Assembly: GCA_951406725.2 (NCBI GenBank)
Contig: OX597814.1
Span: 165,912,001-165,976,000, forward strand
Direction of reading: 5' to 3'
DNA length: 64,000 bases
Origin: Octopus vulgaris
Taxonomy: Eukaryota
Under the pieces are notes generated by a model. It did not search any database. It had not been told where the DNA came from and saw only the letters and a program-made list of their open reading frames with translations. A program made the translations under genes and the position numbers. Shown in pieces: positions 33,241 to 59,186 of the stretch (positions are counted from its first letter, which is position 1; the number at the start of each line of letters is the position of its first letter).

Positions 33241-33496
33241 CTAGGTTGCTGATGTTTTAAGCTGGTGGTTTCCGTCTTTAGAAGAGGGCTTTCAGGACCC
33301 GTTGCAATAATTGCCAACTGCTGCAATTTGTTTACATCTGTGGTTGGGTTATCATCAACTGATGGCCATGTTGTTGTGGTAGGGCTACTAACAAGAGGAG
33401 AGACAGCTGAAGACAAAGTTAGAGGCATGGGCTTGCACTTCCCACAGTTGCCCTCTGTCTTAATTGTTTTTGTGTCAGCTGAATCACAGGTTATTT
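33241..33496 (-). CDS. HBP1: HBP1-like exon with KLQQLAIIATGPESPLL motif
   Basis: TTGCAG acceptor, GTGAGT donor, phase 1 to 2. Lies within ORF 33237..33644. The motif resembles vertebrate HBP1 LTELANIATSPQSP. Confidence 0.9.
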
Positions 33497-36436: not shown

Positions 36437-36853
36437 TACATATACTCGCATGAGCATGTGTGTGAGGGAAGGTGAGAGCCCTATACTACATAAAATATTT
36501 GCATCTATTTTCCCCCACAATATATCATTTGGAAATATCTTTGTTTTTTTTATTTTTTTATGGGAAGAAATGAGGAGGTTGGATCTCAGGTTGTTGGATC
36601 TGAAAATCAAGATGAGAACAAGCCTGAGAGAAATGACAATATGTAGTCTCCAGCTCTGTGCTGGCATGAGAAAAAAATTCAGTGAAACAACAATGATAAT
36701 GATCATGATAGTTTATAAATTAGAGCTGGATTCTCTTCCAACGGCTTGACCATATAACTTTCAAGTGGAAGCAAATACATTTTGTGAGCCAGGCAGATGA
36801 CAGCAAGAGGCGTAATGCATTTTGTATCATAATTTGATAAAGTATATAGCCTG

Positions 36854-37716
36854 GTGGAGAAGTTTACCTATCTGGGCTCTACCGTCACCTACAACCTATC
36901 CCTTGACGCTGAGCTCAATATACGCATTGGCAAGGCAGCTGCTGCGATGGCCCAACTCTCCAAACGGGCTTGGGACAACAATAAGCTGACCAAGACCACA
37001 AAAATGAAGATCTACCAGGCATGTGTACTCAGCACTCTACTGTATGGAAGCGAGACCTGGACGCTATACACACGCCAAGAGCGTCGCCTAAACATCTTTC
37101 ACCTGCGCTGCCTCCGAAAAATCCTCCACATCAAATGGCAGAATCATATCCCCAACAAAGATGTCCTCAGGCAAGCAGGAATACCAAGCATGTTTGCACT
37201 CCTCACACAAAGACGTATGAGATGGCTTGGGCATGTTAGCCGTATGAAAGATGGCAGAATCCCCAAGGACATACTCTACAGAGAGCTTGCTAGGGGTACT
37301 AGGTCTGTGGGTAGACCGATCTTGCGTTACAAGGATGTTTGCAAAAGGGATATGAAGGCCTGCAACATCAACATTAGCGGTTGGGAGGCAGTCGCCGGCA
37401 ACCGTGGAGAATGGCGACGTACAGTAAAAGAGGGTATACAGAGGAGTGACAGAAAGAGAGAGGAGAAATGGAAAGAAAGGAAGAGACATAAACAAGAGAC
37501 CATGGCACTACAATCAGCCAGGAACAGTCTTTGCTACATTTGCAGTACCTGCCAGAGGGAGTGTTTGTCCAGGATAGGACTACACAGCCACAGCAAGAAA
37601 TGTAACAGGAAATAAAATATAACAGCCGGACTAGACCTAGAAAAAAAAAAAAAAAAAGAAAAAGAAAAAAAGGCGCAACTCCATTGTCTCCCGAGACAGA
37701 AAGGATGCCAAACTCA
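36854..37716 (+). mobile_element. Young 5'-truncated RTE (BovB-like) LINE with TSD
   Basis: Uninterrupted 253-codon ORF (FTYLGS, RIGKA, LLYGSETW, RWLGHVSRMKDGRIPK, C-terminal CSTCQRECLSRIGLHSHSKKC). 3' UTR ends tgtctcccgagacagaaaggatgcc. TSD ATAGCCTG at 36846-36853 and 37717-37724. Confidence 0.93.
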
Positions 37717-39063
37717 ATAGCCTGTTCTTATTATAATTAACCATTCAACTACAAAGAAGAAATTATGCCTATTCTCCCTTTAGATAGGCTGAGACTATTA
37801 AATCAATGTCTTACTCACTCACAGACACAGTATGGCTGTAGTAAGATTTGAAAACATGACCTTGTAATGAAATAATTAAGTGCCTTCACATCATAGCTAT
37901 ACATAGGTTACTATAAATATTAAACAATTACATCATACACATAAATCCATATAAATAGAAATTGCAAGTATATTTGTAAAATCATCATATATATAGATTA
38001 TATACTTAATTTGTTTCATTACAATTCACCTAATTCACATAAAATTGAGAATATTATCTAATATTATCTCCTTTGAAGGGAGAGGTATATCTCATTTCAG
38101 TTTAACATCACTAAACTAGAATTTAAGTATTGGCCCTTAAAAGTGTTTAGGTAATATTTGCACTTTTACTGCATTTTAAATACAGATGCAGGTAACTGTA
38201 AGATTATTTTTTATATGAGGAAAGTGTACTAATGAAACATGTGTTAACACAAATGCCCTTTGAACCATTGTTGAAAATTAAGATCTGATGCTTAGCTCTT
38301 GTTTTACGGCATGAAACTGATGAAATAGACTTGTATCTGGATCGGATACCAGTCTAACACAAGTGAAGTTCCAAAACAGATTGGTACCTATTCTTCACAA
38401 GTGAACTGAGGCATACTGGAACAAAATGTTCTGCTCAAAAACAAAAAAAATAATTGCAGTATATTTTAGATCACAGCCTGTGAAGAGATAAACTCTAAAT
38501 CTACTTGGCCAATTCACATTTTCATGTATTACATCTGTTTCACTCAATGTGACACATAGAAAGCTGAATGCTCTCAAGTGACACACAGCAAGCCGAATGA
38601 TACAAATAATACCAAAGTCAATATCCCAGATAAGAAGGGTTAGTGGATTTTGTTACATTACAAAGTAAGCATTTAAGAATGTAACAATGAAGTGCTTCTC
38701 CATCTAAAACCTCAGACTATGAACTGGAACTCAATAGTTCAATAAACTGAATGAATTACCAGTGTGTTAAATTAACAAGCAAGCGGCTGAGTATTCCACA
38801 GATACATGTACCCTTAATGAATCAGTGTAGTAACACAATGTGTGAAATACAAGTACAATCCAACCAATGGGTTTCCATACAATTTCCATCAAGTGCATTT
38901 CAATTACAAAGCTTAGACATAAACAAAACTATATTAAAAGACAATTACCCAAGATACTACAGTGGGAAAGAAATCAAAACCTTATGACAATGGAGCAAAC
39001 TTCTCAACCACTCATGAGCACACACACACACACACACACACACAGCTATAAAGGTATTAATAC

Positions 39064-39260
39064 CTCTACAATATTCTGTTTGCTGAACTGGTTGTGTCAT
39101 TGATTCATCAGCTGATGTGTCTTGGGACATATAATCCTCATTAGCAGAATCGTCACTGTCTGCATCACTGGCAGATTTATCTGTTTTGTAGTTCTGGAAA
39201 CCACCACCTGACCCATAGCAGCCTTTAGTTTTGCCACGATGGTATTTTAAACCGTTGGCA
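39064..39260 (-). CDS. HBP1: HBP1-like exon: second half of zinc finger 2 and acidic Ser/Asp-rich linker
   Basis: Polypyrimidine tract + CAG acceptor (39261-39263). AG|T makes Ser, then ANGLKYHRGKTKGCYGSGGGFQNYKTDKSASDADSDDSANEDYMSQDTSADESMTQPVQQTEYCR. Donor GTATTA, phase 1. Confidence 0.85.
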
Positions 39261-39976
39261 CTGAAAATAGAAAAGAAAAGAGTAAATTATTAGAAAAAAA
39301 TATCAAAAGCAAAACAACAAAATATAGTCAAAAAATGAAATTTAAATAATAGCATTCACAAAGATCACACCAACTCAGTAGTTTGATGAGTACAAGATTA
39401 TTTTTTATTGGAAAACTAACAAAAGTGAAAGGTCATGACCCTATTCTTGTAAACAGTTTTAACTTCTCACTCAAATTTCCAACACACCAATCCTTTAAAA
39501 CAATAGGATGGTCCATCTAGGAAGTGACCTGAGATTTCAAATCCACTTCCCTTATTATAATTAGATTTTTCTATCTTTCTTTCTCTCTCTCTCTCTTTCT
39601 TCATCACTCCCTCTACCTATCTCTTTGTCTCTCCTTGTCTAGTCTCAGTAACTATTTTAGCAATTCAACTATTTTTAATGTTACATTTTAGTGCATCTAA
39701 AAATCATAAACTACTTTTATTTTTCACATAAACATAAAACAAGAATGGATAATTCAGAAGCTGACTACAATAAAAATGGGCAATTTAAAAGAACCTCTGT
39801 AGCTATTCAGTGTATAAAAAAAATCTTACTGTACTTTTATAATTAAATATTATTTAGGAATTATATTAAAAAAATTAAAATATATTATATATATGACAGC
39901 AGTATAAGCAATTAATTGTACATAAATGTTAACAATAAAATCTATCAATGTGGATCCCGGCTGAGAAATGCTTTAA

Positions 39977-40197
39977 CCCTTTAGTGTTCGCATTATTCTG
40001 CCAAAATTTATGCTTTTTCATCCACACTGTTTTGAACTAATCATGCATTATCTTGTAGCTATGAGATTTTGATGAGGTAGCTGTTAATTTTTAAAACGAT
40101 ATTGTAGGGTTGGTGTGAGAGACCAGATCTGGCCAGTTTGAACATAAAACAGGTAGAATATTTTTGGCTGGATATGGCCGATTTAAATGCTAAAGGG
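39977..40197. mobile_element. piggyBac-type MITE (TTAA TSD)
   Basis: TTAA|ccctttagtgttc..aaatgctaaaggg|TTAA. Related copies at ~48905-49112 and ~23755-23935, and a fragment at ~47113-47155. Confidence 0.82.
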
Positions 40198-40876
40198 TTA
40201 AACTAATACTTATTCAAATACTTCCTCACAGATTTACACTCCATTGAAATTCCTGTCCTGATCACATATTCCTTAAACCTACTAACCATCAACAAGTCAA
40301 TATTAACCACATTAATCTTTCCTAATTACCTGAAATAGAAAAATAAGGTCAAAAATATATGAGCAAGCCATTTTCTTTATGTATTAACAAACTCAAACAA
40401 CAAAAACAAAATATTCTATATCAACGAAAAATTTCCTCCTTAACTCTAAATACATGTCTTCTTCGTGCTACTAATAATCTAAACATATATGTTAGATGTT
40501 AACATCACTGCATATTTTCATTTAACCCTACTCCTCTACTCTGCCTTACTGATAAACTTGTGTTGCCCTGTCACAGCTGGTTACCATTATCTTAAGATAA
40601 AGGTACCCAGAGTATATCAAGCATTTTCAATAGTGATTCTACTTTTTGGGAATCAAGCCTGACAGAAGTAAGAACCCATGGAATAAATTCATTTTGCTGC
40701 ATATCAAATCAAGATACTAGAAATAGCAAACACTTAAAGTAGGTAGCTAACTAAGCAGTCACACTAAAACTGAAATGCTCTCAGTTCAAATAGTAACTTT
40801 TTTTCTCTTAATATGCATGTATGTAGTGCACTTTAGAAATAAGATGAATGGTGGTAGTATGATTAAAGACAGAGAA

Positions 40877-40907
<31 letters not shown>

Positions 40908-41021
40908 GTTGACATTGGAGCTTCACATAGCCCTGAAAGCTCATCAGATCCTGTCAAACCTTCCAATGACATGCCAGTATAGAAACAAAAGTTGAATGAG
41001 GAATTTATACATTATACATAC

Positions 41022-41081
<60 letters not shown>

Positions 41082-41444
41082 TAGCCATAAGTCAAAAATA
41101 ACAAATACTCAATATAAGTACCAAAGCAGGTGTATTTTTATATTGTCAAGCAATAAATTGTTTGTTATGTCGGAGATTATATTACAATATGACACCATGT
41201 GGTTTTGTTTTATAGCTGCTTCTCTGGCTGTTTGCTTATACATTGTCACAAAAGACTTGCATTATATTTTCTTTGCAAATTTCAAGTTGTATAATCTCAG
41301 ATACTCTATCAAGAACAATCCTAAACCATATAAACAAAAAAAAGTTGTCAATATTATCTAGTGGCATTATTTAACATGAAACCAACAGTATCATTATGAC
41401 CATTTATATGTCAGAACTAGTAATATATTATTTGACAATATAAT

Positions 41445-41497
<53 letters not shown>

Positions 41498-42049
41498 CTA
41501 CGATCACCTTTAATATCTTTGTTTATTTATACCTGAAAGGTTAAATATAAAACTGTCTATAAAAACACTTCCTGTACAAGAGAATACTTGTTCTTGATAT
41601 ATAGGCAAAAAGCCTGGCTCTTAACCAAACTTTTCTGCTAAGGAAGCCAAACGCTGAAATGTGTTAAGAGTTATCTTCCCTATTCGCCAGAAAAACCATC
41701 ATCATCAGCAGCAGCAGCATCATAATAATAATCCTTTCAACTAAAGGCATAAAGTCTGACATTCTGGGGTAGGGGACTAGTTGATTATATCAACCCCAGT
41801 GTTTCACTGGTACTTAATTTATCAACCCCAAAAGGATGAAAAGCAAAGTCAATCTCAGTGGAATTTGAACTCCAGAACATAAAAATGGACAAAATGCCAC
41901 TAAGCATTTTTCCTGGCATGCAAATGATTCTGCCAGTTCACCTTGCTGTTGCTGTTGTTGTTGATGATGATAATGATGATAATCCAACTTGGAAAGTCCA
42001 ATGAAACAACCACGATAGGACTCCAAATGTAACTCCAAAGTTACACTAA

Positions 42050-43085
42050 CTGGATGATACGGCTAGTAAGGCAATGTGAACAGAAGAAAAAACTACACTT
42101 AGTCTCAAAAGAGGCATATAAATACAGAGCATAACCTCCCTGATTATGATGATAAAGAGGACACACCACCCACTAAGGCAGTAAAAAAGTGTAAAACAAA
42201 AACCAAACAGGAAAACTTGAAGGTAATATCGAGAGTGTGTCAAGAAAATCCATTGCATGGGCAATACTCCAAACAAAATGAGGAAGCTGATATAGATATA
42301 TGAAAAAGTCATCAGTGGCTGCTGAGTGCTGGTTTGAAAGCTGAAACAGTAGGATTTATCCTAGTAGCACAAGATCAGAGTCTTCTCACCCAGAACTATC
42401 AAGCTAATGTCACACACAATGAGGTAGACAAAGTGTAGACTCTGTAATGACAAACTGGAGAGTATTTTGGTTACATTGTTGCCAGTTGCTCAGTCTTTGC
42501 CCCAGCAGAATATAAAACCAGGCATGGTTGAGTTGGCCAATACTTGCACTGGAGCGTATGCTATCACTATGATATCTTGCACCCTAAGAACTGGTATGAA
42601 TGCCATCCAGAGCCAGTCACCGAGGAGAGAATGTTACCATCCTATGGGTTTATGAGATACATACAGACAGGCAAATAAATACTAACAGATCAGACATTGT
42701 TATCAAAGACCCAAGACAAAAATACATGCCTGTTAATTGATATGACAATGCCTACTGATGAACATGTCAGTAAGCGAATTTGAAAAACTGTTGAAATATA
42801 AGGACCTTGAGACTGAAATATCTAGGACATGGCAATTAAAAACCAAAACCATCCCTGTTGTTGTAGATTCCCTGAGAATGGTCAAGAAAGGAAGTGACAA
42901 ATTTTTACCAGATCCCTGAGAAACCAACAATCTATGAGATTCAAAAAATTATGTTGACATCAACCACCCATGTTCTCAGAAAGTTTCTCTCCATCTAATA
43001 TATACGTACCTTAGGTCTGTGATTGAGACCTGGTTGGAAGATGAAATAAAATACAAATCATTTGGAAAATGATAATGATGATGAT
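42050..43085 (+). mobile_element. Degenerate Dong/R4-clade LINE 3' fragment
   Basis: LKAETVGFILVAQDQSLLTQNY, CRLCNDKLES, DIVIKDPRQNTCLLIDMT and KYKDLETEISRTWQLKTKTIPVVV, followed by a (TGA/TAA)n tail. Confidence 0.82.
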
Positions 43086-43339
43086 GATAATTTCAAATTT
43101 TGGCACAGGCCAGCAAGATCAGAGATCCCAGCTCTCAACTGGTATTTATTTTATCGATTCCAGAAGGATGAAAGGTAAAGCTGACCTCAGTGGAATTTGA
43201 ACTTAGAACATAATAATGTACAAAATGCCACTCAGCATTTTGCCTGACATGCTAATGAAACTGCCAGCTCACAACAACAACAACAGTAAAAAAAAAATGA
43301 ATGAAAAGGGAAAAAAATATAAACATTGCTGAGAAATGA

Positions 43340-43570
43340 ACCAAATAAAAGAGGCTTTGTAACAGATGGCTAAAAGAGATTGGAAAAGAATACTCGGTAG
43401 AGCTCCTACAGAAAGTTTGTCTCTTAGGGACAGCAAGGATTATCAGGAGGGTTCTAAGCACGTGAAAAACTGCTGAAAACTTGTGGATACCTAAAGTTAC
43501 AGGTAGTAACCTGCTACCCACATAAATTCTACAAGGAATAAGACCGAACCTGAACCAAACCAAAATATTA
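43340..43570 (+). mobile_element. Very short Dong/R4-like LINE 3' end
   Basis: WLKEIGKEYSVELLQKVCLLGTARIIRRVLST* followed by a short UTR. Confidence 0.7.
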
Positions 43571-45423
43571 TAACATCAATTTTCCATGCTGGTATGGATT
43601 GGATGCTTTGACAGGAACTTGCAAGTCAGGAGACTATGCCAAAGTACAACTATTTTCCACTCAATGAGTATTTGAGCTTCAGCTTTTTAAAGTTCCTTGC
43701 ATAAATATTTTACCCATTTGCCTATATTATTCCAAATTTTGGCCAACTCTCTCAGCTTTTAAGTTTCCCTTGTAGTTTTATTACTGAATAACTGTTTACT
43801 GATAAGACTTTGCTGAACATTTAAAACCCTGAAATATAACATACTAAAGAAGAGACTATATTATGATACACTCCAAAAAATATTGTGTAACATTAAAAAG
43901 AAAAAATTAATATAATTGTTCTAAGGTACCAATAACAATATTATCATTATCTTTTCAGAGACACTCAATTCTCAAGTGAAATCTAGAGTACAACAGGCAT
44001 ATATTATCTGCTCTAAATTTTTCCTAGATATAAAATGGTTAATGTATAAATGCTGTATCTCACAAACTCATGCGTATCCAGTCAACAGCTTCTTTCCATC
44101 AAGTTTACTGGTTCTCAACCTTTTGTAACTCAGTACCCTTTTCATTGAATGGTGTTTTACAAATCTTCCCTTACCTCATGTTGCAAAAGAAAAGTAAAAA
44201 AAAAAAAAGACACAAAAACAAACACCACTGAAGCTATGCATATTTTCTTATATTTATCCCATCTTTGGAATGAACTAAAGCCCCTAATGTTAAATTTTTA
44301 CAGAAATTACTAAAGCAAGTAAGGACTTATTAAATGAAATTATGCTGGAATTTAGTATATCAGTCCTTCTCATTTTAATACAAGATTTATTGTTTTAAAT
44401 AAAAAGATGTGTTTTAAGTTTAAGTTATGTACTTGGTTTGAATATTTTATTTCAAATAAAAATCATAACTCCTCTAAATCCTCTTATAAGCTCCCAATGC
44501 CCCAGGTGGGGGAGCGCAACAACTTATGTTAAGAACCACTTGATGAAGGTGATTTAGACTTTGAAAATAGCTGGACAATTCTCTCTAATAATCATCCTTA
44601 TCTACTAAACAAATAAACAGATTTTATGCAAAACACCACATGCATTTATCACTACTTATAAGTAAGCACTGAGATGGTGACAGAAATACACCCTTCTGAA
44701 ATACTTTTTTTGTCCGTGATAAAAAAATATGCTAACCTCATATATTCATCCAGATTATCCAACTACACTGAGAACAAAGTAAACTTTAGAAAAACTTTAC
44801 TGATAAGATGTCAAGATGACACTGCTAAGAAATATTAATTAATCATTATTGCTGATATCCAACATGCACTAACAAAAAAAATTAATATTGGACTATTAAT
44901 GAACAATGAAGAAAATTGGCTTTAACTCAGTACTTCATCAAAATTAAATTACAGAAAAGTTATAAGTTAGTGTATGCATATACATAACTAGTTCAAACTA
45001 AATATTTTGAGGAAATGCACAAGACGAGTGTCAAGTCATGGTAAAAGACTCGGCTGCAAACTGAATGTATAAAATTTCCTATCACACTGTACTCCCATAC
45101 AATCAAACAATATATAGCAGAACGTACAGTTCTAAACCAGAGTGAATCATGATGTAACTGATTGTAGTACAACTGTAGGTCATTAGAACTTCAGTTTTGA
45201 AAGGAGCTGCTCAATTTAACTGGTTTCTAACATAGAATACTTAAAAACAAAAATTGATAGAAGAAAGGAAATGCAATATTAAATGTATAAAAATTAGTGT
45301 GTTGTTGAAATTAACTGCTTACCTCTGGGTTGACATTATGTCATTAAATTAATTACAACTACCAGAATTGTACCCATCTTCCAGTCACACATTCTCATAC
45401 AAGCTGTAGTGAATATATATCTA

Positions 45424-45825
45424 TGTCAGATAACATGTATACAACCCAAGAGCAACCCAAAGGTGAATGTGATAGGAGAGGTAGGAAATCAGAATTTCAT
45501 AGCAGCACACAACCTTATTATGGTTGTAGCTGGTTAATTCAAGAGAATGCTGATGAGCTAGAAGCTGCATCCTTCAGCAACAAGCTTTCTCTTCATTGCT
45601 CCGCCCAACTCTCTTTTTCTTTCTCTCCCCAGGCCATCCAAAATAGATCCTGCCCACACTTAGATTCCACTTCACCACCACCACCACTTTCAGAACTAGT
45701 ATAGTAGCTTCACCTAACAGTACACCCACAGTAACGTTCTCAGCTTTCAACCGAAATTACCCACCCCGACTCCCTGTGCAGTGGGGTTTGACAACCAAAA
45801 CTGGGCGACCCTCCATTTCCTAACA
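45424..45825 (-). mobile_element. Probable solo LTR
   Basis: GC-richer ~400-bp block bounded by TG..CA with near-inverted termini (TGTCAG/TGTTAG). Flanks TCTA/TCAA match at 3 of 4 positions, a possible 4-bp TSD. Confidence 0.5.
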
Positions 45826-46675
45826 TCAACAACAACAAACATAGCTAAATAAACACTCAAACAAGAGACACAGAGATACAAAAATAAGGAGGCAGACATG
45901 CCAGCCAGTTTCACTCCTCCTTTTCTTCAGAGATTTTGTTGTCGTTTTTTTCTCACACAAATACAAAAAGATGCCTGTTATCATTAATTTTAGCAAACCT
46001 TTCTACTAGTTTCACTTATTCTTGTTGTTACTCTACCCTTCCCTCCTTTATAACATGTAGTTTGTGAAATACAATGAACAGTAACAGATATGTGAATGCA
46101 TGAATTTATATAAGTGTGCCTTAAGTGAGTGTGTGTGCATAACAAACTAGATAGCAGTCTATACTTAAGGCTGTGCTTAAACAAGGTAGGAAGTTTAGAG
46201 AAGTGAAGTTATTGCAACTCCGATTTCTACTTTAGAGTATTTTGGTGCTCCTCGTGTCCAAATTTAAATTCCTCTAGTGTTAATCTTGCCTTTCAGCCAG
46301 ATGGTGTCAGAGAAACAAAACCAAGTAAAGAGCTGATTTAATCAACTCTACACTCTCTCAGGGAAAATTAAATTAAGATAATATTAGCAAATATTATTTT
46401 TCAGTAGTCTTATTTTTATTACATGCATTCAGTGGGTTTTTATTCTGCTTTTTTATGTGCTTTTATTGTACTGAAAGAACTCCATGTAATATGTAGGAAG
46501 TGCTTTAGTAATGTTATTTTCTGTATGTTGTGCATACGCATAAAACCTAAGATTTTTGTCTAATCACTTCTGAAACACCTATATTTATTTTAGGGATTAT
46601 CTAATTTCAGCTATCAAATTCTGGTTTACTTTACTGATATTTGAATAATTTTTTAGATTTCTTTTGAGGACGCAT

Positions 46676-46676
46676 A

Positions 46677-46711
<35 letters not shown>

Positions 46712-47043
46712 CATTATTATTATTATTATTATTATTCAGTAGTTTTATTTTTATAGCGTGCTTTCACTTTACTACCGAGCGCAGCTCTGTGTGCCTTGGG
46801 TATGTGCTGTGATTTGTTGTGATGCTCTGATGGTTATTGTATGGAAAGTGTTCTGCGTAGGATGTGTGCAGTGCCTAGTAGTGCAATTTTCTGTATGTTA
46901 TATGTGTTTGTAAGTCCTGGTGTTTTTGTTATGTATTTGTCTGAATATTTTTTTATCATGCCTAATGCACCTACTATGATAGGAATTGTTTCTGTTTTTA
47001 GATTCCACATTCTGGTTACCTCTATTTCCAGGTCTTTGTATTT
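46676..47043 (-). mobile_element. Short, well-preserved Dong/R4 LINE 3' end within (TAA)n
   Basis: KYKDLEIEVTRMWNLKTETIPIIVGALGMIKK..IQKIALLGTAHILRRTLSIQ*. (ATT)n on both sides on the plus strand. Confidence 0.87.
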
Positions 47044-47052
47044 TATTATATA

Positions 47053-47085
<33 letters not shown>

Positions 47086-47350
47086 CATTATTATTATTAT
47101 TATTATTATTATCCCTTCAGCATTTAAACTGGCCATATCCAGCCAAAATATTCCAGCCTTTCAGGGTCAATAAAATAAGTACCAGTCAAGCACTGTGGTG
47201 AATATAATTAATTAACCCCATTCATCAAAATTTCACAAAATGCCTAGTGACATCTTTGTCCATCTTTACACTTTGAGTTCAAGTTCTGGAGAGATTGATT
47301 TTGTCTTTCATCCTTTCAGGGTTCATAAAGTAAAGTACCAGTTGAGTAAT

Positions 47351-47656
47351 AATGTCGCCTTTTTCAAGCCTAGCCAGGCTCATGGGCCCAGTTTCCCAGT
47401 TTCTGTGGCGTGTGTGTTCCCCCTAGCTGGATGGGACACCAGTCCATCACAGCGTTACTCAAGAAACAGGAAGACAGAGTGAAAGAAAGTTGTGGCGAAA
47501 GAGTACAACAGGGGTAGCCACCACGCCCTGCTGGAGCCTCGTGGAGCTTTTAGGTGTTTTCGCTCAATAAACACACACAATGCCTGGTCTGGGAATCGAA
47601 ACCACAATCCTCTGACCGCGAGTCCGCTGCCCTAACTTCTGGGCCATTGCACCTCA
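47351..47656 (-). mobile_element. SINE family A nested in a family-B SINE, with 11-bp TSD
   Basis: AGTTGAGTAAT at 47340-47350 and 47657-47667. The host SINE core continues on both sides. Confidence 0.87.
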
Positions 47657-49652
47657 AGTTGAGTAATGGAGACAATGTAATCAACTAGCCCCCCTCTCTC
47701 AAAAATTTCAGGCTTTGTGCCTATAGTAGAAAGGATTATCATTATTATTATTATTATTAATACTATAACTACAACAAAAACTCAAAGTCTTAATTTGTAA
47801 AAGAAGGAAACAGTACCAAGTAACTTTTACAGACTTTAACAACATGGAGTGATATGAAAACTAAATGCACAATCCAGATGCTACGAATGCACATGGCAAA
47901 AACACAAAACACTTAACTTTCACTATCAATCTACATAAAACCTTTGCAAAAAAAAAAATTATCCGTTACAAACAACAAAATAGTGAACAGAACATCTGTG
48001 CTCAAATCTTATTAATGTCAACTAATGAACAAAAGTAACATGCTGGGATCAAAACAATAAACTGTAACTCTAGCCTTTCAAAAAATCAGCTTTTACATGA
48101 GAGAAATCACAATTATAATGGAAGTACTGATGGATCAATAAACATATGTGACCTGTTGTTATATTATAAGCATCTTTTAGGATAATTAAATGCATTTCTC
48201 ATATACTACTAAATGAAATCAAAATAGTAGACTTTATTTCAGAAATAAGAATATCATAACCAATAGTTTAGAAATAAATGTGCCTCATTCAAATCCACTC
48301 TACTACTATGTTACAAATGAAAGAATACATACACCAGTGACTTAGTAAGTCATCACCATCATCATTTTTACAAATGCTTCTCCAAGATGGCATGGGTTGG
48401 ATGGGTCCATTTTAAGAAAGGTTCTCCCCACCTGTTGCAGTCTTTGTCATCTTGCAGAGCTCACTAGTTTTTTCCCATACCTTCTTCAGCCTACCCTTTT
48501 CACAGGTTCCATCAATCTGCATCACTTCACTCTCTTCCATTCAACTATCATTCTTCATACACATCATTAGCCCATACAATTTCACCCCCCTTTTTCTTTT
48601 CTCCTTATACACTACAGTTGTCACCACTAACATTAAGTGATTTTTGCTTCATTTCTCAAACACATATTCAGAAAGGCATTCTTACATCATTTCTTTGCAG
48701 CTTTTACATATCCTCTATAACAGTCATGCAATAATGCCCTTTGTATTCAAGCATCATACAGTTTTCCCTGCATTTGTAGGGAGAAGTCCTTTGTCGCCAA
48801 ACCAAAAAATAACTCCCAGAACTTACCCCATTTCACCCAAAGTCTGGCTACTATCCCTTTGCAACACCCACCTATGCTATTGATCAATTCATAAATTATC
48901 AACATAACCCTTTAGCATTCAGATTACTTTGACAAATGTAATGCTTATTTATTCACATTGCTCTGAATTAATCACGCATTATTTTGTAGCTTCAAGATTC
49001 CAATGATGTGTTTGTATATTTTTAGAATAACATTATTAGAGTAGGTGTGAGAGGTTGGATCTGCTCAGTCTTAACATAAAGCAAGAAGAATATTTTGGCC
49101 GGATATGGTTAACAAGCTTTTTAAGTAGTTAGACTCCATTCCTTGAGTGCTCTTACTACAGAACAATTCCTGTGAATTTGTTATGTATGAAATCTTTCTA
49201 TAAAAATATTATTATCATTAGATTGGAAATGTAGACTCTTAGTTCAAATCAAATTCAATTATATGTATATATCCAGGAATAAAACACCAGATGATGATCA
49301 CAAAATCAAACTAACTGAAACAGTGAAAATGTAAGTATTAACACTTTTTTTTTCATCTCCTAAGACAAGATGAATAATTCAGAAAATTATAATCTTACTA
49401 ACAAATAATCTCAGACATTTAGAGAGTCAACAGAGTAGAGTGTTTACTAGATGACACAAAGAGGAGGCAGAAGTCAGATGTGAATGAGTGAACAATGAGC
49501 AAAATATAAAACCAATTAACTTTATACTTATAGATAAAGGGCAACAATGAGTTAGAGCAGCAAACATATACATATGCCTGTTTACATGAATAAACATTTA
49601 AAATATTAGAGAATTATAAAGAAGAACCATGTAATTGAAATTTTGGATAAAA

Positions 49653-49702
<50 letters not shown>

Positions 49703-50700
49703 GTGTGTGTGCATGTGTGTGTGCATGTTTGTATGCATAGCTGTTGATTCCCCATATCATAACTATGGCTATTTGCACAAATAGAAGAGGAAAAAAGTGT
49801 AACTTTGTTTATATTCTCTAGTAAATGAATGTTCACCAGACAAGAGAAGGCCAGTGCAATGAAAAAGGCCTTTCTTGAAAAATGTTCGGAGAGAAAGGAC
49901 AATAAGAGTATCAAGCTGTAGAAAATTTGCTTCGATAAGATTCGTCTGACCCATGCAAGCATGGAAAAACAGATGTAAAACCAATGATGATGATGATGAT
50001 GATCATCATCATCATCATACACACACACACATGTATGCAACACATTAACTGTACATGGACAGAAAAAAAATAAAGTGACCTGCTTCAAACTTTGGTAAAA
50101 ATAAATCATTCAAAAGAACAATGCAGTGAGCCTAGGATTATGACAGCAATAACAGCATCAACATAAATAGTCAGAAAAGGTTAAAATTAAGACATCTAAA
50201 CAACTGAAAGTAGAGGATAATGAAACACACACAAACAACTTATTTTAGGAGTGCCTGCTATGCAATGCCTTGAGTGTATGTGCACATGCAAGCATGTGTG
50301 TGTGTGTGTTTGTTTTTAAAACAATTGCATCTTGACATTTAAGAACACAAACTTTACATTTCACTATTTATTTTGAATAGAACCATGAAGTTCAAAAAAG
50401 TCTCATCACTGACATAATCTTGCTGCAACTACAATGACTTGAAGTATGTTTATATCATAAATTTCATTTGATAAAACAAACAAAAAAAAAAACTCACTTC
50501 CATTAATCAGCAACATTTGTGAGATTTATAGATTAGACACTATTATCAAATAAGACTAATAGTAATTTTTCAGAACATTTCCTCATATTCTATACTAACA
50601 TTATAAATAAATCTTTGTTTTCGTTTAAAATGTGCAACAGACAAAACTTGAAATCTCTAGTACTTTCTGAAGTGTTTACAGCTTTGAAAATAATCGTGTG

Positions 50701-50752
<52 letters not shown>

Positions 50753-51078
50753 TGTGCGTGTGTGTGTGTGTAGGTGTGTGTGTGTGTGTGAGTGAGCGCG
50801 CGTGTGTGTGTGTGTGTGATGATACACATCATCACTTTTAACATCCACTTTTCAGTGATTGCATGGGTCAAACGGAATCTGTTGAGACAGCCAAATATCC
50901 TTTCTGTTGCTGACATCCACTTCGTTCCGAAGTGAGATAATTTCCCCAGTCCAAAAATGCTTTCATTGAAGAGTGGAAATGAAGACTACCACTGCAACGA
51001 CAGTGATGCTCATTTAAAACTATCATGAAGCGTCAAGGCAAGGAGACACTAACACACACACACACACACATAAATACA

Positions 51079-51906
51079 CAGGGTGTTAGGGATAAATCTG
51101 ATGATTTTTTTTTAGTCTCCTTTTTTTCAGGAACAGCTTGATGTATTGGTGAACAGTGAACAGCATTGGAGAGCATAAAGATTACAGTTGAGAAAAAGTT
51201 AGCTGACATGGAGGATCGGGAGCCATTTGAATATTGGAAATGAGTTAACTGTACCATTATGATTCATGCCAGATATCAAAATGCTCACATCATGATTGCT
51301 GCTCAATCTGTGAACACTGTAAAGGCTGTAAGATGTGATATGGGCAGCTGCAATGGAGACTACAAAGCTATGGCTAGCAGGTCTTTGGATGTGTCTCCAG
51401 TGAGGGTGATATCATGCCACCCTCACATTTTTGAATAGGTGGTTATGCGAAACCACTGGAGATTGTGGTCAATCCATGACTGGAGAGGGTTGCTGCAAGG
51501 TCACATGTGTGGCAGTATGATTCAGCTCCTTGTCACACCTCCAGCAAGAGTTAGAAGTGGTTGCAGGAGAGTCTCTATGACTTCACTGTCCCATCTCCCT
51601 TTCAAATTGAGGTATGGTTGAAAAAGACACCAGACATTCAACCTGCAATATCAAGGCCCAAATGGTGGCCAAAGTCAAGGAGGTGTTCAAAGATCTTCCC
51701 AGGAAAGAATGCATGTGCCAGGTTCTGGAACCATCTTGAAGCTATGGTGGATGCTGAGGGTGGCTATTTTGAGTAAACTTTTATATCTCAGCCATAATCT
51801 AGTTTTTGAGTTTTTAAAATACTTTTATTTATTTATTTATTTTTTTTTTATGGGATAATGTTTTCTTTTCCTTTCATGCAAACTGTCAAATTTAGCCCAA
51901 ACACTG
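51079..51906 (+). mobile_element. Degenerate Tc1/mariner-superfamily element
   Basis: Imperfect TIRs cagggtgttagggataaatctga and tcaaatttagcccaaacactgtg. Transposase C-terminus ACARFWNHLEAMVDAEGGYFE*. Confidence 0.72.
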
Positions 51907-52899
51907 TGAGTGTGTGTGTGTGCATGTACACAAACACACACACAAGGCTCTGGTCGGTCAGGGGCTGTAATAGAAAGCACTTAGCTAAGGTACCATACAT
52001 TAGGGACTGATCCCAAGATCATTTGATTGAGAAGCAAACTTCAACTACACAACCACACCTGCACCTCACTACATATGTGTGTATACACACACACATTATC
52101 TTGGCTTGAACCATCAACTCTTGATGGAGTCACAGAGCATGGGGTAACATGCTTTACAGCTTCAGTAATTTTGTTTTATATATATAGAGATATATTTTAC
52201 TTGCATTTGAGTATTTGGGGTATAGAAATGAATTCAGTTTGTATTTATAATTATATCTGCATCCTTAATAAAATGAAACTAAAACAACAGCATTTTGAAT
52301 TTCCAGAAAAAACAAAACCATTAATACTTTCAAATTAAACAAAATATATTCATACACTCATGCAAAAGGAATATAATTATGCATAAGAAAATAAAACTAC
52401 TGCAACAGTACTTAACCTAGCACAGCTCAATTTCTGATTAAAAGAAAGAATTTTTTATATATATACTAGCATACCAATTAGCTCATGTTAAGCTCAGAGT
52501 AGCAATCAAGATAGTAATAACTCCCACTTAACAAACAAGGTAGAAAAATAAACACCAAAGAAGCCCATAGCCCACAAAACACCAGCAGTAAAGCAGATAC
52601 ATTGTATGCTATCTGCATTCATCAAAGAACAGTACACAGAAGCAGTGTGGTCTGCAGCAGTGGAGCAAAAAGATTTTTTAAGTGTAACACAGAAAAATAA
52701 TGCAGCAGTTGTCATGATAACAAAAAAATTTAACCAAAGTCATGCACACCCACACATGAGGACACTACAAATAACAGATCCAGGACAGCCATCATTGTTA
52801 CCATAGCAAATATTACACCAATTCTACTACTAAATATCAGAGGCTTGTTATAGCTCAATAGCAATGGCAAAATTTCATTCCTGAGAGAGTTTTCTGCAT

Positions 52900-53880
52900 G
52901 CAATATGCATAGCACTTACTGAAACACATAAATGATGCAAAGACACATATACCAAAGTATGCTGTGTTTTGTACATACAGAAAATAAAGAAGTCTCAGTA
53001 GAGTTACTTATCAACATCCATGATTATATGAAACCCATAACCCAGTGGTCACATTCAAACTCAGTCTGTGGTACACTCACAGTGCTTATAAAGCAACTTG
53101 ATGTAGTAATATGTATATTATATCATCCATGTTATGCCTCAAACCATGATGGTAAATTTGAGGCAAGCCTTTAAATGATAAAAGAAGTACAAGCAAAACT
53201 AAATCAAAACACTAATGCACTTCTGATGGGCAACTTCTCCATCAGATGGGCCAAAGGCAACATAATCTCAAGAACGTCATGCAAAGAATAGAATCAAACA
53301 GAATCTACTTGATCTCACAAAAATTAGGTTAATTGAACAAATTATACTATTCCCAACCAAGAACATCTTAGACCACTGCTTCATGTCGCTAATGATTTTC
53401 TCAGGCCACAACATAATAGAACGCACAATGTACAGTCCAAAGCTATTTAAAGATGTATACCACAAGTAATGTTGCATCATTCCATGTGCATATTACTAAG
53501 ATGGCAACAATGTACAGATGACTGGCTGGTTTGACTCTGAGTCAATCAAAACATAAGGAAAAGAAACTATGTTGATCCTATGGAGAATATTCACTCTCAG
53601 CCAACTGGACTACTGCTCCCAATTATGGTTGCCACAAAAGCATAAAACTCAGAGCATCGCTGTAGACAATCCAACACCACTACACCAACAAGACTGACTC
53701 AGTACAAAAGATGAACTACTGGAACAACTGAAAAGAACTAAAGCTCTACTCCCTAGTCTAGTATCTAGATTACCAAAACCAAATCCAGAGAGGGGACCAG
53801 GAAGTGAATTTGAAATAAACTAGCAACCCTACTACTAAAGGTGGTACCCCATCATAACCACAGCCCTTGACTGAGATCAT
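52900..53880 (+). mobile_element. Highly degenerate CR1/L2-like LINE remnant
   Basis: APE-like pieces (VVICILYHP, LLMGNFS), RT C-terminal MLILWR..SQLDYCSQLW, and a 3' tail ggtggtaccccatcataaccacagcc..gactgag. Confidence 0.5.
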
Positions 53881-54199
53881 GCTAGAGTACCATCATTAGT
53901 AATGCAATTGCTGTATACGGTTACAGCTGAACCAGTGAAAGATAAAAAGGTGTATATGTACACGTACACACACCTCTGATAATATGGCAAATATTTTAAG
54001 CACAGACATGTCTGTTTGGCTTAGAAGCTTGCTTCCTGACCATGCGGTTTCAGGTTCAGTCCTGCTGCACAGCATCTTGGGTAAGCATCCACTATTATAG
54101 CTCTGGGCCAACCAAAGCCTTGTAAGTAGATTTAATAAATGGGAACTGAAATCACCCCAGCATATCTATTGAAGGAGGTATAGGTACAGCTATAGGAGT

Positions 54200-55252
54200 G
54201 TGGACAGAGTTTGTTTCTTTACCATACATGCATGCAACTAGACCTCTCCTGATCGCTTTGCATGTGTATGTGTTCCGAGGGCGTAGCTGTGAGAATAAGA
54301 TTAGGCTGGGCAAAGTTCAGAGAGCTTCTACCTCTGCTGGCAACAAAGGGCCTCTCTCTCAGAGTGAAAGGCAGATTGTTTGATGCCTGTGTGCGAACAG
54401 CTATGCTGCATAGCAGTGAAACATGGGCTATAATAGCCGAGGACATGCATATGCTTGAAAGAAATGAAACCAGTATGCTTCACTGGGTGTGCAATGTCAG
54501 TGTGCATGTTTGACAGAATGTAAGCATCTTGAAAGAAAAGTTAGGCATAAGAGGAATCAGATGTGGTGTGCAAGATAGATGACTGTGCTGGTATGGTCAT
54601 GTGTTGCATATGGACGAGGACAGTTGTGTAAAGAAGTGCCAATCTCTGACTGTGGAGAGAATCTGTGGTTGAGGTAGACCCAGGAAGACATGGAACATGG
54701 TGGTGAAGCATGGCCTTCGAACTTTGAACCTCACAAAGGCAATGACTAGTGACTGGGACCTTTGGCGATGTGCTCTGCTTAAGAGAAACCAGCAAGCCAA
54801 GTGCATCTGTGCTGGTGGTACACAAAATAATCACCCTTTGAATGTTAGGCCTCAAGGAGGCGAGGTAGCTGAGTTCCTTTCAAGTGTTGGGCCTCATGGA
54901 GGCAAAGTGTCTGAGCTTCTTTCAAGTGTTGGGCCTCACGGAGGCAATGACCAAGACCGTTGGCATTTATGTCATGCTTGAGAAGAAGACACATGAAGCT
55001 GAGCAAATTGCAGTCATGGCAGATACCAGTGTCATGCAAATGGCAGTAGTAGCAGATACTGGTGTCACGCAAATGGCACCCGTGCTAGTGGCACGTAAAA
55101 GCACTCATTATACTCTTGGAGTGGTTGGTGTTAGGAAGGGATTCCAGCTGCAGAAAACCATGCCAAATCAGACTGGATTCTGGCACAGTGTGCCACCCCA
55201 GTCAAACTGTCCAACCCATGCCAGCATGGACAATGGACGTATGATGATGATG
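54200..55252 (+). mobile_element. RTE-like LINE 3' fragment with (ATG)n tail
   Basis: ORF 54262..54513 RIRLGWAKFRELLPLLATKGLSLRVKGRLFDACVRTAMLHSSETW, then WYGHVLHMD and GRPRKTW. Same 3' UTR as 21243-21900. Confidence 0.85.
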
Positions 55253-56055
55253 ACATCAAAAATGATTGCCCTAACACCCTTATTTATCTTACAATGTTTG
55301 AACAAACAATAAAGACATCTATATAGTAGCTAGACAAATTACAAATTGCAACCAAAGTCTCCTGTAAATCACAACCTTTTGTCTTAGTGAGCATATACCA
55401 ACAAATGATATTTCTACAAGGTAGCTAGATATGTTAGAAATATTAACTCCACCTAGTAGCCAATTCTCACTCAAATTACAACCTTTGATCTCATGTTACT
55501 TTGATTCAATATTCATGTACTCCAAAGCGTATTCTGAAACTCAGCCCCAATATTTTCTTACAACTAAAAAAAAAATTTTAATTCAAAATAATTTTTGAAA
55601 TTAGAATCTTAAATTGAAACAGTGCTTCAAATTTTCAGACAACGAAAAAATGTTTTAAACAACTTCATCCAATTTTCGTACATAACTTCATAGGACACAA
55701 ACTATATAAATTTAAAGCTTATAAATGAATATGGGTAGTATTTAGTTCTCAAGCACAAAGCACATCCCAAATTTCTAGGTTTAAAAATTTTGAGGGTAGA
55801 GGAGTGCACATTTACACAAATAAGTAGGGACTACTTCCATTGCCTCAGGTTTCATGCCAAATGCAACCATTAGATAGTGCATCATCTACTGAGGAACATA
55901 GTCAATCTTGACAGATCTTATACCATTCATATAATAACACATTGCAAACTTGCAGTTGGTCCTATTGTTTACATCTAGTACATTAAATGGCTGTTGTTTC
56001 TTTTTTGTAGTTCATGATACAGAATATATTTCTGTGGTGGCATCCTGGGAATAAA

Positions 56056-56420
56056 CTCTTTACTCTTTACTTGTTTCAGTCATTTGACTGTGGCCATGCT
56101 GGAGCACCGCCTTTTAGTCGAGCAAATCAACCCCAGGACTTATTCTATCAGTCTCTTTTGCTGAACCGCTAAGTTACGGGGATGTAAACATACCAGCATT
56201 GGTTTTCAAGCAATGTTGGGGGGACAAACACACACACACACACATATACATATATACAATGGGCTTCTTTCAGTTTCCATCTACCAAATCCACTCACAAG
56301 GCTTTGGTCAGCCCGAGGCTAGAGTAGAAGACACTTGCCCAAGGTGCCATGCAGTGGGACTGAACCTGGAACCATGTGGTTCGTAAGCAAGCTACTTACC
56401 ACACAACCACTCCTGCGCCT
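56056..56420 (-). mobile_element. tRNA-derived SINE, family C
   Basis: Head ggcgcaggagtggttgtgtggtaagtagc..ggttcagtccc and tail ggcggtgctccagcatggccacagtcaaatgactgaaacaagtaaagagtaaagag. Confidence 0.88.
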
Positions 56421-57151
56421 ATATCTCCATCTTTCTATTTAAATTATCAGTTTATTTGGTTAAAATGTAACTACTTAGTAACCATGTGACTATGTACCCA
56501 TTACTAGTTAATTCTTACTTCCCTACCTAACTTTCTTCCTACCACCTATCACACCAACTACCTTGCTCACTAATTTGTACAACACTCCCACTTCCTGCTA
56601 GCCTTTCACACCAAGTAGTTCTCTCTCTCTCTCTCCTTTTCCTAACACACAACAAAGTTCATTCATTTCTATTATCTCTCAGCATCTACTTCTTGTCCTT
56701 ACCTTTTGACTTATTCTCTATCAATCTACTTCCACCAGTTATTACTTGACCATTCTGTCTAAGGACCTTAATCTAGACAGCCAGACTATTCAACACCTTA
56801 CAGCAACCAAACTTACAGACTTTTACACACTCTCTTAGATTTTATTACTATTGTTGCCAACAGTGACCCTCATAAGATTAACAGTTCTTAATTTAACTTA
56901 TATTAAATCTATCTTTCTCACCACTACAGCAGAGTCTACACAAGTAAACAGAATGAATAGCAAAACAGATGCAATATGCAACACACCATAAAAACAGTTG
57001 GTGTTTGGGACATCACATGTTACATTCAGTATATTTCAGAATATTTCCTAATTTATGCATGTCAATATTGCAAGATATATTAGTAGACTAGATCTAGTTG
57101 ATGTTCAATTTCTAGTCAGTTGGCAGAGGTTAGTATTTAGCAAAGGAAAAA

Positions 57152-57553
57152 ACTCTTTTACTTGTTTCAGTCATGGCCATGCTGGAGCACCGCCTTTAGT
57201 TGAGCAAATCAACTTCAGGACTTATTCTTTGTAAGCCTAGTACTTATTCTATCAGTCTCTTTTGCAAAACTGCTAAGTTACGGGGATGTAAACGCACCAG
57301 CATCGGTTGTCAAGTAATATTGGGGGAACAAACACAGACGCACAAACATATACACACAGATACATATATATATATATATAGATATATACGATGGGCTTCT
57401 TTCAGATTCCATCTACCAAATTCACTTACAAGGCTTTGGTCGGCCCGAGGCTATAGTAGAAGACACATGCCCAAGGTGCCACGCAGTGGGACTGAACCCA
57501 GAACCATGTGGTTTGTAAGCAAGCTACTTACCACACAGCCACTCCTATGCCTA
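57152..57553 (-). mobile_element. tRNA-derived SINE, family C
   Basis: Near-identical in layout to 56056-56420. Confidence 0.88.
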
Positions 57554-57789
57554 CTGATATGCATTTTATGAGTCCACACAGTAACATCAATTTGGTGGTG
57601 GAAAACTACAGGTAAATAATGCATTTAGGAAAGAATGAAAATGAAATGTGACACTAGCAAAAGTAAATATTGCTATTATTGATTTATTATATTGACACAA
57701 AGTAACGATCCTACAGGTAAGCTAATTGGCTTTAAGACTTGATTAGCATGTATTTCATCAATACCAAAACGATGAAAAGTAATGTCCTT

Positions 57790-57990
57790 AACTCAAGGGG
57801 GCATGAGGAGTGGAATAGGGAAGAGGGGGTGGGAAATGAGAAGTGAAGAAGAGGAGGGAGTAGGATGGGAGAGGAAGACGAGAGGTGGACAAGAGGAGGG
57901 GGGAGGGGAGAGGAGGAAACGATGAGAGGAGGAGAACAGAAGAGAGGGGAGGAGGAAGACGGAGGAGGGAGGGGAGGAGGAAGAGGATTT
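57790..57990 (+). repeat. G/A-rich polypurine low-complexity tract
   Basis: About 200 bp of almost only G and A with several G-runs. Confidence 0.85.
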
Positions 57991-58553
57991 AAGAGAGAAT
58001 CAGTAAATCAGAATGGTGTCCAGAACTTTGCAGGTAAGGTGGAGGTGATAAGATTGTCTTGATAAGATTATAGGCATTAGTTTTATTTACACACCCCCAC
58101 AGTAAAGAGATAGGCAAAGTCTCTGCAGAAGCATGTGTTTTGACAGCTGGAGGTCTAAATCTTTCAACCATGAAGTATTGTTGACACTAGTAAGTTGGCT
58201 TGTATGTGACACTACTTAGCAAAACACATTACACATTCACATTTATTCATACATTAAACTTCCCAGAGAATGGAGGTGTACTGCTGACGTAAGTACTAGT
58301 ATTACAATTTCCTCAATACAATAGGTGACATACAGTAAGGTTAATGTAGGATTTGGAAACAGATACAATTTTATTACATAACAATAGGATAGACAAAGGA
58401 GGGGTGGGTGGAGTGGACAGATGGATAGGTAGAACAATATAAAGAAAGGAAGACAGACATAGTATAAACAGGTGTGTAGATAGACCGGTAAAGAAAGTGA
58501 AGAGATATGTAGACACACAGATATATATATATATATCATCATCATCATCATCG

Positions 58554-58629
<76 letters not shown>

Positions 58630-58968
58630 ATAAATAAATAAATAAATAAATAAATAAATAGGCAAAAGAACTGATAAACAACCTTAACTGGCACTTTTTC
58701 TTCTTTGATGAATACCCCCACTGATATGTCAGAATTCTTTTCTCTTTAAAACAAAAATTCCTATTCTAAACTTTACTGAAACTATTTTTGCCTATTCAAA
58801 CCTTTATTAGTTTTCTTGGTTGCTAGTGCTTTTCTGACATAAATAAACAATCAATCAAACAGCTGGCATTACAGAACAGACATAATAGACAGAAAGACAG
58901 ATAAATAAACAGTTAGACATATTTAAAAAGAAGAATTGCACACAGCAAGATGATATAACAGTACTTAC

Positions 58969-59186
58969 CTTTTGAAACTTTTGTCACATTTTTCGCAAAT
59001 AAATCTTCTGTGAGGATCAACATGTGTCTTTGTATGATAGCGTAATCCTGGGACACTTGTGAAGACTTTGCCACAACCATCTTTGGGACACTTTAACAAT
59101 TTCTGAGTGACATTGTCTTCTTGGGATTTCTCAAATTCTTGCATCCGTTCTGTCTTTACCCGTGACCGTTTGCTTAAGGTGGCATC
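58969..59186 (-). CDS. HBP1: HBP1-like exon: C2H2 zinc finger 1 and first half of finger 2
   Basis: Acceptor CAG (59187-59189), donor GTAAGT (58963-58968). Translates DATLSKRSRVKTERMQEFEKSQEDNVTQKLLKCPKDGCGKVFTSVPGLRYHTKTHVDPHRRFICEKCDKSFK+AG and ends in phase 2. Confidence 0.85.

Follow-up and report, generated by a model that had tools for sequence, protein, structure and literature searches.

An HBP1 gene with two zinc fingers

We analyzed a gene on the minus strand of a 64-kb stretch of the Octopus vulgaris genome (2.8 Gb; contig C1), hereafter called the window, to which all positions refer unless otherwise stated. Ten coding exons (Table 1), all with GT-AG borders and matching phases, add up to 1,580 nt and 526 codons without a stop, and encode two N-terminal zinc fingers, an AXH domain, a motif resembling the Sin3-interaction domain (SID) and an HMG box. 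Judged by sequence and predicted fold, the gene is an orthologue of HBP1, carrying what is likely an ancestral bilaterian finger pair; we consider it likely that the LxCxE motif of vertebrate HBP1 is a remnant of the first of these fingers.

A sequence-only reading of the same DNA had recognized a C2H2 finger and the start of a second one in exon 58969-59186, and the Pfam zf-C2H2 score (29.1 bits, cut-off 25.2) bears this out. The exon is entered in phase 0 and left in phase 2, with donor GTAAGT, and its translation is identical to residues 6-78 of the O. sinensis protein P0293 (XP_029643216.2, 531 aa). The following phase-2 intron, of 19,708 nt between 58969 and 39260, splits finger 2, which after exon joining reads C-x2-C-x12-H-x6-C: donor, phases and frame all fit the proposed splice completing a C2HC finger. 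The continuity of the finger exons with those of AXH, SID and HMG, also proposed, is confirmed by the stop-free frame and by named records, the translation being identical to P0293 at 526 of 526 residues and to the O. vulgaris record P0291 (CAI9716313.1) at 512 of 512, and 97.7% identical to P0001 of O. bimaculoides. Of the 527-residue model put forward earlier, frame and architecture stand, while its length has to be corrected: 526 residues are modelled and five N-terminal codons are missing; residue 526 of the frame is the last one in the records of both O. sinensis and O. vulgaris, which makes residue 527 probably half of a split stop codon. A candidate for this five-codon first coding exon (G000:C1:166001134-166001148) lies outside the window, about 30 kb upstream of 59186, in a CpG-richer stretch, and is the sole pattern match across 33.8 kb upstream. 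Public annotation already contains this octopus HBP1 protein, together with a precomputed match to zf-C2H2.

Table 1. Coding exons and related features of the octopus HBP1 gene, in order of transcription.
Feature	Position	Strand	Remarks
Coding exon	58969-59186	-	218 nt; basic N-terminal helix region, finger 1 and first half of finger 2
Zinc finger 1, C2H2 (C-x4-C-x12-H-x3-H)	59022-59090	-	Pfam PF00096 above cut-off; profile tests
Alternative first coding exon (candidate)	45323-45336	-	four codons and phase-2 donor; only pattern match in intron 1
Coding exon	39064-39260	-	remainder of finger 2 with its His and last Cys (39218-39260), followed by an acidic linker
Coding exon	33241-33496	-	linker with conserved L-A-x-I-A-T-x-P-x-S-P-L motif, short predicted helix
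Coding exon	32773-32903	-	linker, then start of AXH
Coding exon	31737-31848	-	AXH
Coding exon	29591-29760	-	AXH; partial Pfam AXH match; one match in genome
Coding exon	28822-28963	-	end of AXH; position of vertebrate IxCxE reads I-x-C-x-K in octopus
Coding exon	27472-27529	-	SID-like motif, aligning with the vertebrate motif
Coding exon	23448-23599	-	HMG box, first part
Coding exon	18709-18852	-	remainder of HMG box; phase 2 end, probably inside the stop codon

The attribution to HBP1 and the order finger-finger-AXH-SID-HMG, as read earlier, are upheld by several comparisons. A profile of 25 finger-bearing homologues, searched against PDB, retrieved the HBP1 AXH domain (3qve, E 2e-44, and also 1v06) and the HBP1 HMG box (2e6o, E 7.8e-44), with capicua (1e-20) and ataxin-1 (4e-13) far behind; a fold search, dominated by AXH and HMG, gave the same ranking. 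The AXH domain of P0293 reaches 92.9 bits with PF08517 (cut-off 33), and the SID-like motif between AXH and HMG aligns with the vertebrate one and fits the pattern A[AV]x[VA][LV] given in a passage of PMC1557813. The finger exon and the AXH exon 29591-29760 have a single genomic match each.

Counts of homologues, here and below, are those among 120 listed out of 197 found. Vertebrate HBP1 (P0087 cluster) is 36.5% identical to the octopus protein over 419 columns and contains, in the same order, the L-A-x-I-A-T-x-P-x-S-P-L motif, AXH, a SID-like motif and an HBP1-type HMG box. The two differ at the N-terminus: the octopus fingers are found in none of the 67 vertebrate or vertebrate-like rows, from hagfish to primates, while an N-terminal LxCxE, present in 62 of these 67, is lacking in octopus. 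P0293, scanned for [LI]-x-C-x-E, contains none, so that it has neither the LxCxE nor the IxCxE by which pocket-protein binding of the vertebrate type is recognized. The same architecture as in octopus is found in invertebrate records named "HMG box-containing protein 1" or "1-like" (O. sinensis, Saccoglossus, Priapulus, Owenia, Lingula X1), whose names leave the fingers unmentioned. The octopus gene is an ordinary, already annotated orthologue, the finger being flagged by Pfam in several records.

According to passages of PMC5362424, PMC1557813 and PMC3273810, the HMG box of mammalian HBP1 binds DNA, AXH and SID repress through Sin3/HDAC, and p300 can turn the protein into an activator. By extension from this vertebrate work, the octopus HMG box would bind DNA and its SID would recruit Sin3/HDAC, making the protein a repressor. 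Conservation of the L-A-x-I-A-T-x-P-x-S-P-L motif extends from sea anemone to primates and, in part, to sponge; predicted to form a short helix, the motif has the look of a second helix for cofactor docking that includes a Ser-Pro site.

Transcript evidence and isoforms

The alignment of contigs and reads covered 27450-39300, an interval without the first finger exon and dominated by intronic repeats, in runs presumed to be RNA, the run search having listed none of them as such. From run X1, one contig matches 39064-39262 perfectly, with flanks of 59 and 73 unplaced letters; this is the pattern that splicing at both borders predicts, because the last two letters of the upstream exon equal the end of the intron. 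A contig of run X8 fits 33272-33447, inside exon 33241-33496. Two points weigh against the proposed joining of exons: neither joint (58969/39260 or 39064/33496) is among the 15 of 272 joints listed for this interval, and the two-letter overhang of X1 fits both candidate upstream exons, 58969-59186 and 45323-45336. As none of the 15 joints lies at an exon junction, the exon junctions rest on the reading frame, on named records of many species and on the Logan contigs P0031 and P0048, of 2,078 and 3,006 nt, which hold fingers, AXH and HMG in one frame and are probably spliced transcripts.

Exon 45323-45336, spliced to 39260, would give rise to an isoform starting in the middle of finger 2 and devoid of any intact finger. 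Two named records from two octopus species, P0290 and P0292, do begin with a start of this type. The finger module could, in this manner, be left out by use of an alternative first exon, and such finger-broken isoforms may be the route by which some lineages lost it.

At the other end of the protein, the O. bimaculoides records P0001, P0292 and P0295 terminate at the intron following 23448, inside the HMG box, where read-through meets an immediate stop. The last residue of the short mouse isoform, which is truncated at position 474, is the same Arg, as counted from the position of the nuclear localization signal in a passage of PMC5249219. The HMG-box intron and an HMG-truncated isoform may thus be common to octopus and mouse.

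Distribution and history of the finger pair

The finger pair is present in 28 of the 120 listed homologues, 26 of them named records, which represent 25 species and six phyla: cephalopods, a chiton, bivalves, gastropods, two nemerteans, the annelid Owenia, the bryozoan Watersipora, Priapulus and the hemichordates Saccoglossus and Glandiceps. A further search of 1.84 billion representatives, together with name look-ups of 30 proteins (with no tunicate, nematode, flatworm, placozoan or ctenophore record identified), added Lingula X1, Ptychodera X1, Littorina, Nucella, Pomacea, Elysia and Bulinus. The cnidarians Nematostella and Oculina have finger 2 without finger 1, and two crinoids have kept just a worn finger 2. 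Besides the vertebrate rows, no finger was seen in the named sea-urchin, Ridgeia and millipede records among the 120. Outside this list, fingers were likewise absent from all seven amphioxus records, four scanned lamprey records (of 11 listed), six more named species of arthropods, the sponge Sycon and a tardigrade model of low quality. The survey of HBP1 architectures across invertebrates, which the earlier reading had called for, shows that the fingered form is widespread and annotated, leaving no novelty to octopus in this respect.

We placed the origin of the fingers on the accepted animal tree, where the presence of the pair in protostomes and in hemichordates assigns it to the bilaterian ancestor. 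Trees built without the finger region, both quick trees, the first of 44 rows and the second of 25 of these 44 after long branches and near-duplicates had been dropped, distribute the fingerless sequences over at least three places, and grouping of all of them in one clade is rejected (approximately unbiased (AU) test, p 0.020). In the 44-row tree the two-finger hemichordates group with echinoderms (SH-like approximate likelihood ratio test (SH-aLRT) 94), deep branches being poorly supported. In two unspliced predictions, P0246 and P0251, finger 2 breaks off at the Lys where the octopus exon ends, suggesting an intron within finger 2 that is shared beyond cephalopods.

From these comparisons, the finger pair is most likely ancestral to bilaterians and was lost several times. 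Finger 2 would be at least as old as the split between cnidarians and bilaterians, finger 1 would have been present in the bilaterian ancestor, and the pair would have been lost separately in chordates, sea urchins and arthropods. Of the two origins envisaged by the sequence-only reading, ancestry followed by loss in vertebrates agrees with the presence of the pair in spiralians, a priapulid and hemichordates, with its absence from all 67 vertebrate rows and with the AU test; a gain in the octopus lineage is not supported, the pair occurring in hemichordates and the priapulid besides spiralians. A cephalopod-specific gain was rejected in view of the 25 named species of six phyla with the same fusion. 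The absence of fingers in chordates rests on many records. Losses elsewhere are less sure, because Lingula X2 and Ptychodera X2 are fingerless isoforms standing beside finger-bearing X1 forms, so that absence from a single record is weak evidence.

Some individual records deserve mention. P0039, the Ridgeia sequence counted as fingerless, has an N-terminal C-x2-C and a later T-K-C, which could be a mis-predicted or decayed finger 2. Several gastropod models, P0131, P0255-P0258 (Pomacea), P0147 (Elysia), P0150 (Bulinus) and P0167, combine the finger pair and the HMG box with an undetectable AXH. This is the reverse of the vertebrate loss, AXH being kept in Littorina, Nucella and Patella P0034. 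Since P0125 begins like the Patella record yet is without AXH, some of these cases may be isoforms or faulty models.

Sequence and predicted role of the fingers

In a fold prediction of the Argonauta orthologue each finger forms two strands and a helix (predicted local distance difference test, pLDDT, 74-91 per block), and about 190 low-confidence residues separate the fingers from AXH. Finger 1 fits the classical C2H2 family (PF00096) in its C-x2-4-C-x12-H-x3-5-H spacing, its hydrophobic core and its two strands and helix; zinc binding is predicted from ligand residues conserved in sequence. The last ligand of finger 2 is Cys in bilaterians and His in the two cnidarians, and the spacing between His and the last Cys is six in cephalopods, five in most others, within a range of 4-7. 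In both fingers, helix position -1 is Ser, +3 is Gly and +6 is Tyr in all 28 sequences; the corresponding frequencies in 1,057 decoy fingers are 20%, 11% and 7%. The K-x-F/L core and a basic residue at +5 are equally invariant (28/28), and position +2 of the finger 1 helix is Pro in 27. The G-L-[RK]-Y-H ending occurs in 18 of 1,057 fingers of multi-finger proteins. No TGEKP linker connects the two fingers in any of the 28 sequences, linkers being variable, with 12-14 residues from the first His to the next Cys; the pair thus has neither the linker nor the base-contacting -1/+3/+6 residues of a tandem Krueppel-type DNA-reading array.

Homologue searches with the finger region as sole query returned nothing but HBP1 records (4 of 5 and 6 of 8 candidates) and no outside relative; ESM Atlas, queried with the pair, gave generic C2H2 clusters, and PDB gave generic multi-finger proteins, the nearest being the DNA-binding ZNF410, YY1 and KLF4. 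In a genome search with the Owenia finger pair the octopus HBP1 locus came top (E 2.7e-12), followed by ordinary finger arrays (E 1.5e-6 or worse). The ending G-L/I-x-Y-H is shared with the SZ (Sfp1-like zinc finger) group, isolated C2H2 fingers found in chromatin-associated proteins. HBP1 differs from this group, here compared by description only, in its tight C2H2 and C2HC pair beside AXH and HMG. JAZF1 is a subunit of NuA4/TIP60, according to a passage of PMC13254600.

The resemblance to ZNF512-type fingers, suggested earlier, holds as a weak match and fails as a family assignment, Pfam ZNF512_zf-C2H2 scoring 19.8-21.8 bits with a cut-off of 27. PF21367 matches finger 2 weakly in 7 of 25 aligned HBP1 members (best E 2.3e-4, all below cut-off), and PF21276 matches no HBP1 member at E 0.01. 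An unrelated protein of 530 aa with helicase-associated (HA) domains, P0222, has C2HC fingers closely resembling HBP1 finger 2; it passes both PF21367 and PF21276 (ZNF512_C2HC), and nothing above 0.85 was found for it in ESM Atlas.

Finger 1 and the LxCxE of vertebrate HBP1

The N-terminal LxCxE of vertebrates is reportedly, from work of 1997, one of the two RB1 motifs of HBP1. L-x-C-x-E lies within the first 130 residues in the 62 vertebrate rows that have it, and is followed by x-x-x-S-S-P-G in 52 of them. Invertebrate finger 1 reads, from its second Cys on, C-x-K-x-[LFY]-x-S-x-P-G in 27 of 28 sequences: this Cys and the next nine residues match the vertebrate stretch (C-x3-L-x-S-S-P-G). A Leu stands two residues before the first Cys in 17 of the 28, and removal of the five inter-Cys residues from finger 1 yields the vertebrate pattern.

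The likeness is reciprocal. Scanned along their full length with a matrix from invertebrate finger 1, 60 of 62 vertebrate rows have their top window around the LxCxE Cys; with a vertebrate matrix, finger 1 is the top window in 27 of 28 invertebrate proteins. All window pairs of the two N-terminal alignments were compared, allowing for window choice and with column shuffles as null: LxCxE and finger 1 form the best pair (p 2e-4 to 4e-4 at 10 and 12 columns), and their gapped score is 25.4, whereas 300 shuffles reached no more than 16.8. When 1,022 decoy finger windows were scored with the vertebrate matrix, finger 1 ranked above their 99th percentile in 25 of 28 cases, and two decoys reached its median. 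MAFFT had aligned the vertebrate Cys with the final Cys of finger 2; this placement was dropped because HBP1 finger 2 scores far below finger 1. The order is collinear as well: upstream, 12 of the 28 invertebrate sequences and 27 of the 62 vertebrate ones share a K-T-x-x-M motif. All seven amphioxus records keep L-L-C-x3-C at the place of LxCxE, an observation made by eye.

Position +2 after LxCxE is L, F or I in 59 of 62 vertebrate rows and equals the core hydrophobic position of the finger, and an acidic residue lies at -1 to -3 in 56 of 62. In place of this acidic residue, invertebrates have Lys or Arg four residues before the first Cys throughout (28/28); four invertebrates other than octopus, P0005, P0008, P0015 and P0016, already read L-x-C-x-E across this Cys. 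A passage of 10.1101/2022.06.10.495386 gives a hydrophobic residue at +2/+3 and an acidic one at -1 to -3 as determinants of LXCXE affinity; HBP1 is named among proteins binding pRB through LXCXE in a passage of PMC2082274, and is credited with two RB1 motifs in one of PMC5249219.

Taken at sequence level, the vertebrate LxCxE stretch is likely homologous to finger 1. That the Rb/p130-docking LxCxE is an exapted remnant of a decayed ancestral C2H2 finger, a larger claim, we hold to be probable with somewhat more reserve. On this view, chordate HBP1 would have lost the whole of finger 2 and, from finger 1, the helix, the His ligands and the five inter-Cys residues, resulting in L-x-C-x-E-x-L-x-S-S-P-G, with the core hydrophobic residue of the finger at the +2 position favoured by pocket proteins. 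Leu, one zinc-ligand Cys, the core hydrophobic residue and a Ser-Pro turn would have been kept as a short linear motif. Control of HBP1 would thereby have passed to pocket proteins, in place of a partner bound through the fingers, and amphioxus, where both Cys remain, would be the intermediate.

Alternative explanations

The finger exons might belong to a separate gene mis-joined by prediction, or to a fusion specific to cephalopods; a 19.7-kb intron and the lack of a junction read among the joints listed speak for this, while 25 named species from six phyla with this fusion, P0031 and P0048 with all domains in a single frame, and a finger 2 that is complete only once both exons are joined have brought it close to refutation. 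Also very unlikely is an ancient pair of HBP1 paralogues, fingered and fingerless, kept differently by different lineages. In its favour, the two-finger sequences are not rejected as one clade in the quick trees (AU p 0.096), a result that also counts against repeated loss, and the deep branches are poorly supported; the rejection of a fingerless clade, the grouping of hemichordates with echinoderms and the single genomic match of the AXH exon oppose it. A weightier objection accepts ancestral fingers lost in chordates and regards the vertebrate LxCxE as independent, its resemblance to finger 1 arising by chance or by convergence on Cys and Ser-Pro. Several observations do weigh against descent from the finger: the likeness was spotted by eye before testing; rows are related, so that the counts given above are not independent; the match rests on about 10 residues and weakens at 8 columns (p 0.009-0.06); the alignment that hhalign makes of this stretch, although unprompted, is weak (probability 2.3%, P 0.021); a hidden Markov model of the finger pair gives no significant vertebrate match; one decoy window outscores 21 of the 28 real finger-1 windows; and Ser-Pro motifs are common in such linkers, their runs being broken by column shuffles. 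Moreover, the first two residues after the Cys differ (+2 is K in 28/28 invertebrates and E in vertebrates), and MAFFT chose finger 2. Set against the reciprocal top matches, the decoy test, the collinear position, K-T-x-x-M and the two-Cys state of amphioxus, an independent origin appears rather unlikely, and we retain descent of LxCxE from finger 1.

As to function, our slight preference is that the intact fingers form a tethered docking module for a partner, protein or chromatin, and do not read bases; this is the least certain step of our proposal. Auxiliary nucleic-acid binding is a substantial competitor, though short of an even chance; in its specific form, in which the fingers are a DNA- or RNA-binding module offering a second site beside the HMG box on a bipartite target, it is plausible and somewhat disfavoured. 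The classical fold, with the invariant K-x-F/L core and basic +5 residue, and the DNA-binding proteins nearest in PDB argue for it, and two points tell against docking: a conserved finger that reads DNA would be expected to have invariant helix residues just as well, and a passage of PMC6976298, which groups the isolated fingers of Sfp1, JAZF1, BRPF1 and ZNF609, calls them DNA-binding. A Gly without side chain at +3, the Pro at +2 of finger 1, the missing TGEKP linker, the presence of just two fingers, the generic multi-finger nature of the PDB matches and the scarcity of the G-L-[RK]-Y-H ending in multi-finger proteins tip our preference towards the predicted docking role.

Repeats in and around the gene

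Three frames, 36833-37612 (+), 9421-10470 (+) and 46837-47160 (-), resemble by eye the ends of reverse transcriptases of non-long terminal repeat (non-LTR) retrotransposons; they are broken copies, within or beside the HBP1 gene. Intronic repeats at about 29940-30620, 31370-31630 and 34580-34750 show very high read depth in the presumed RNA runs, as an abundant transcribed interspersed family would, with related copies near 21400-21600 and 25900-26150.

Novelty and significance

Work on HBP1 has been confined almost wholly to mammals, in which it is seen as a tumour suppressor under retinoblastoma control. Full-text literature searches turned up no description of finger-bearing HBP1 and none of how its LxCxE arose, subscription papers (the founding HBP1 papers and a 2019 review) and supplements lying outside this coverage; the available portions of PMC3626699 and PMC5025812 added nothing on finger-bearing HBP1. 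The ancestral finger architecture of HBP1 seems to be undescribed, and a domain diagram in the subscription papers could already show the fingers.

The invertebrate records mark the mammalian type of HBP1 as a derived, truncated form of a protein whose finger helix is nearly invariant from sea anemones to octopus. If the remnant is real, it would offer a traceable example of a folded domain that, as it decayed, gave rise to a short linear motif, with intermediates still living today; the N-terminal link of HBP1 to Rb would then date to chordates.

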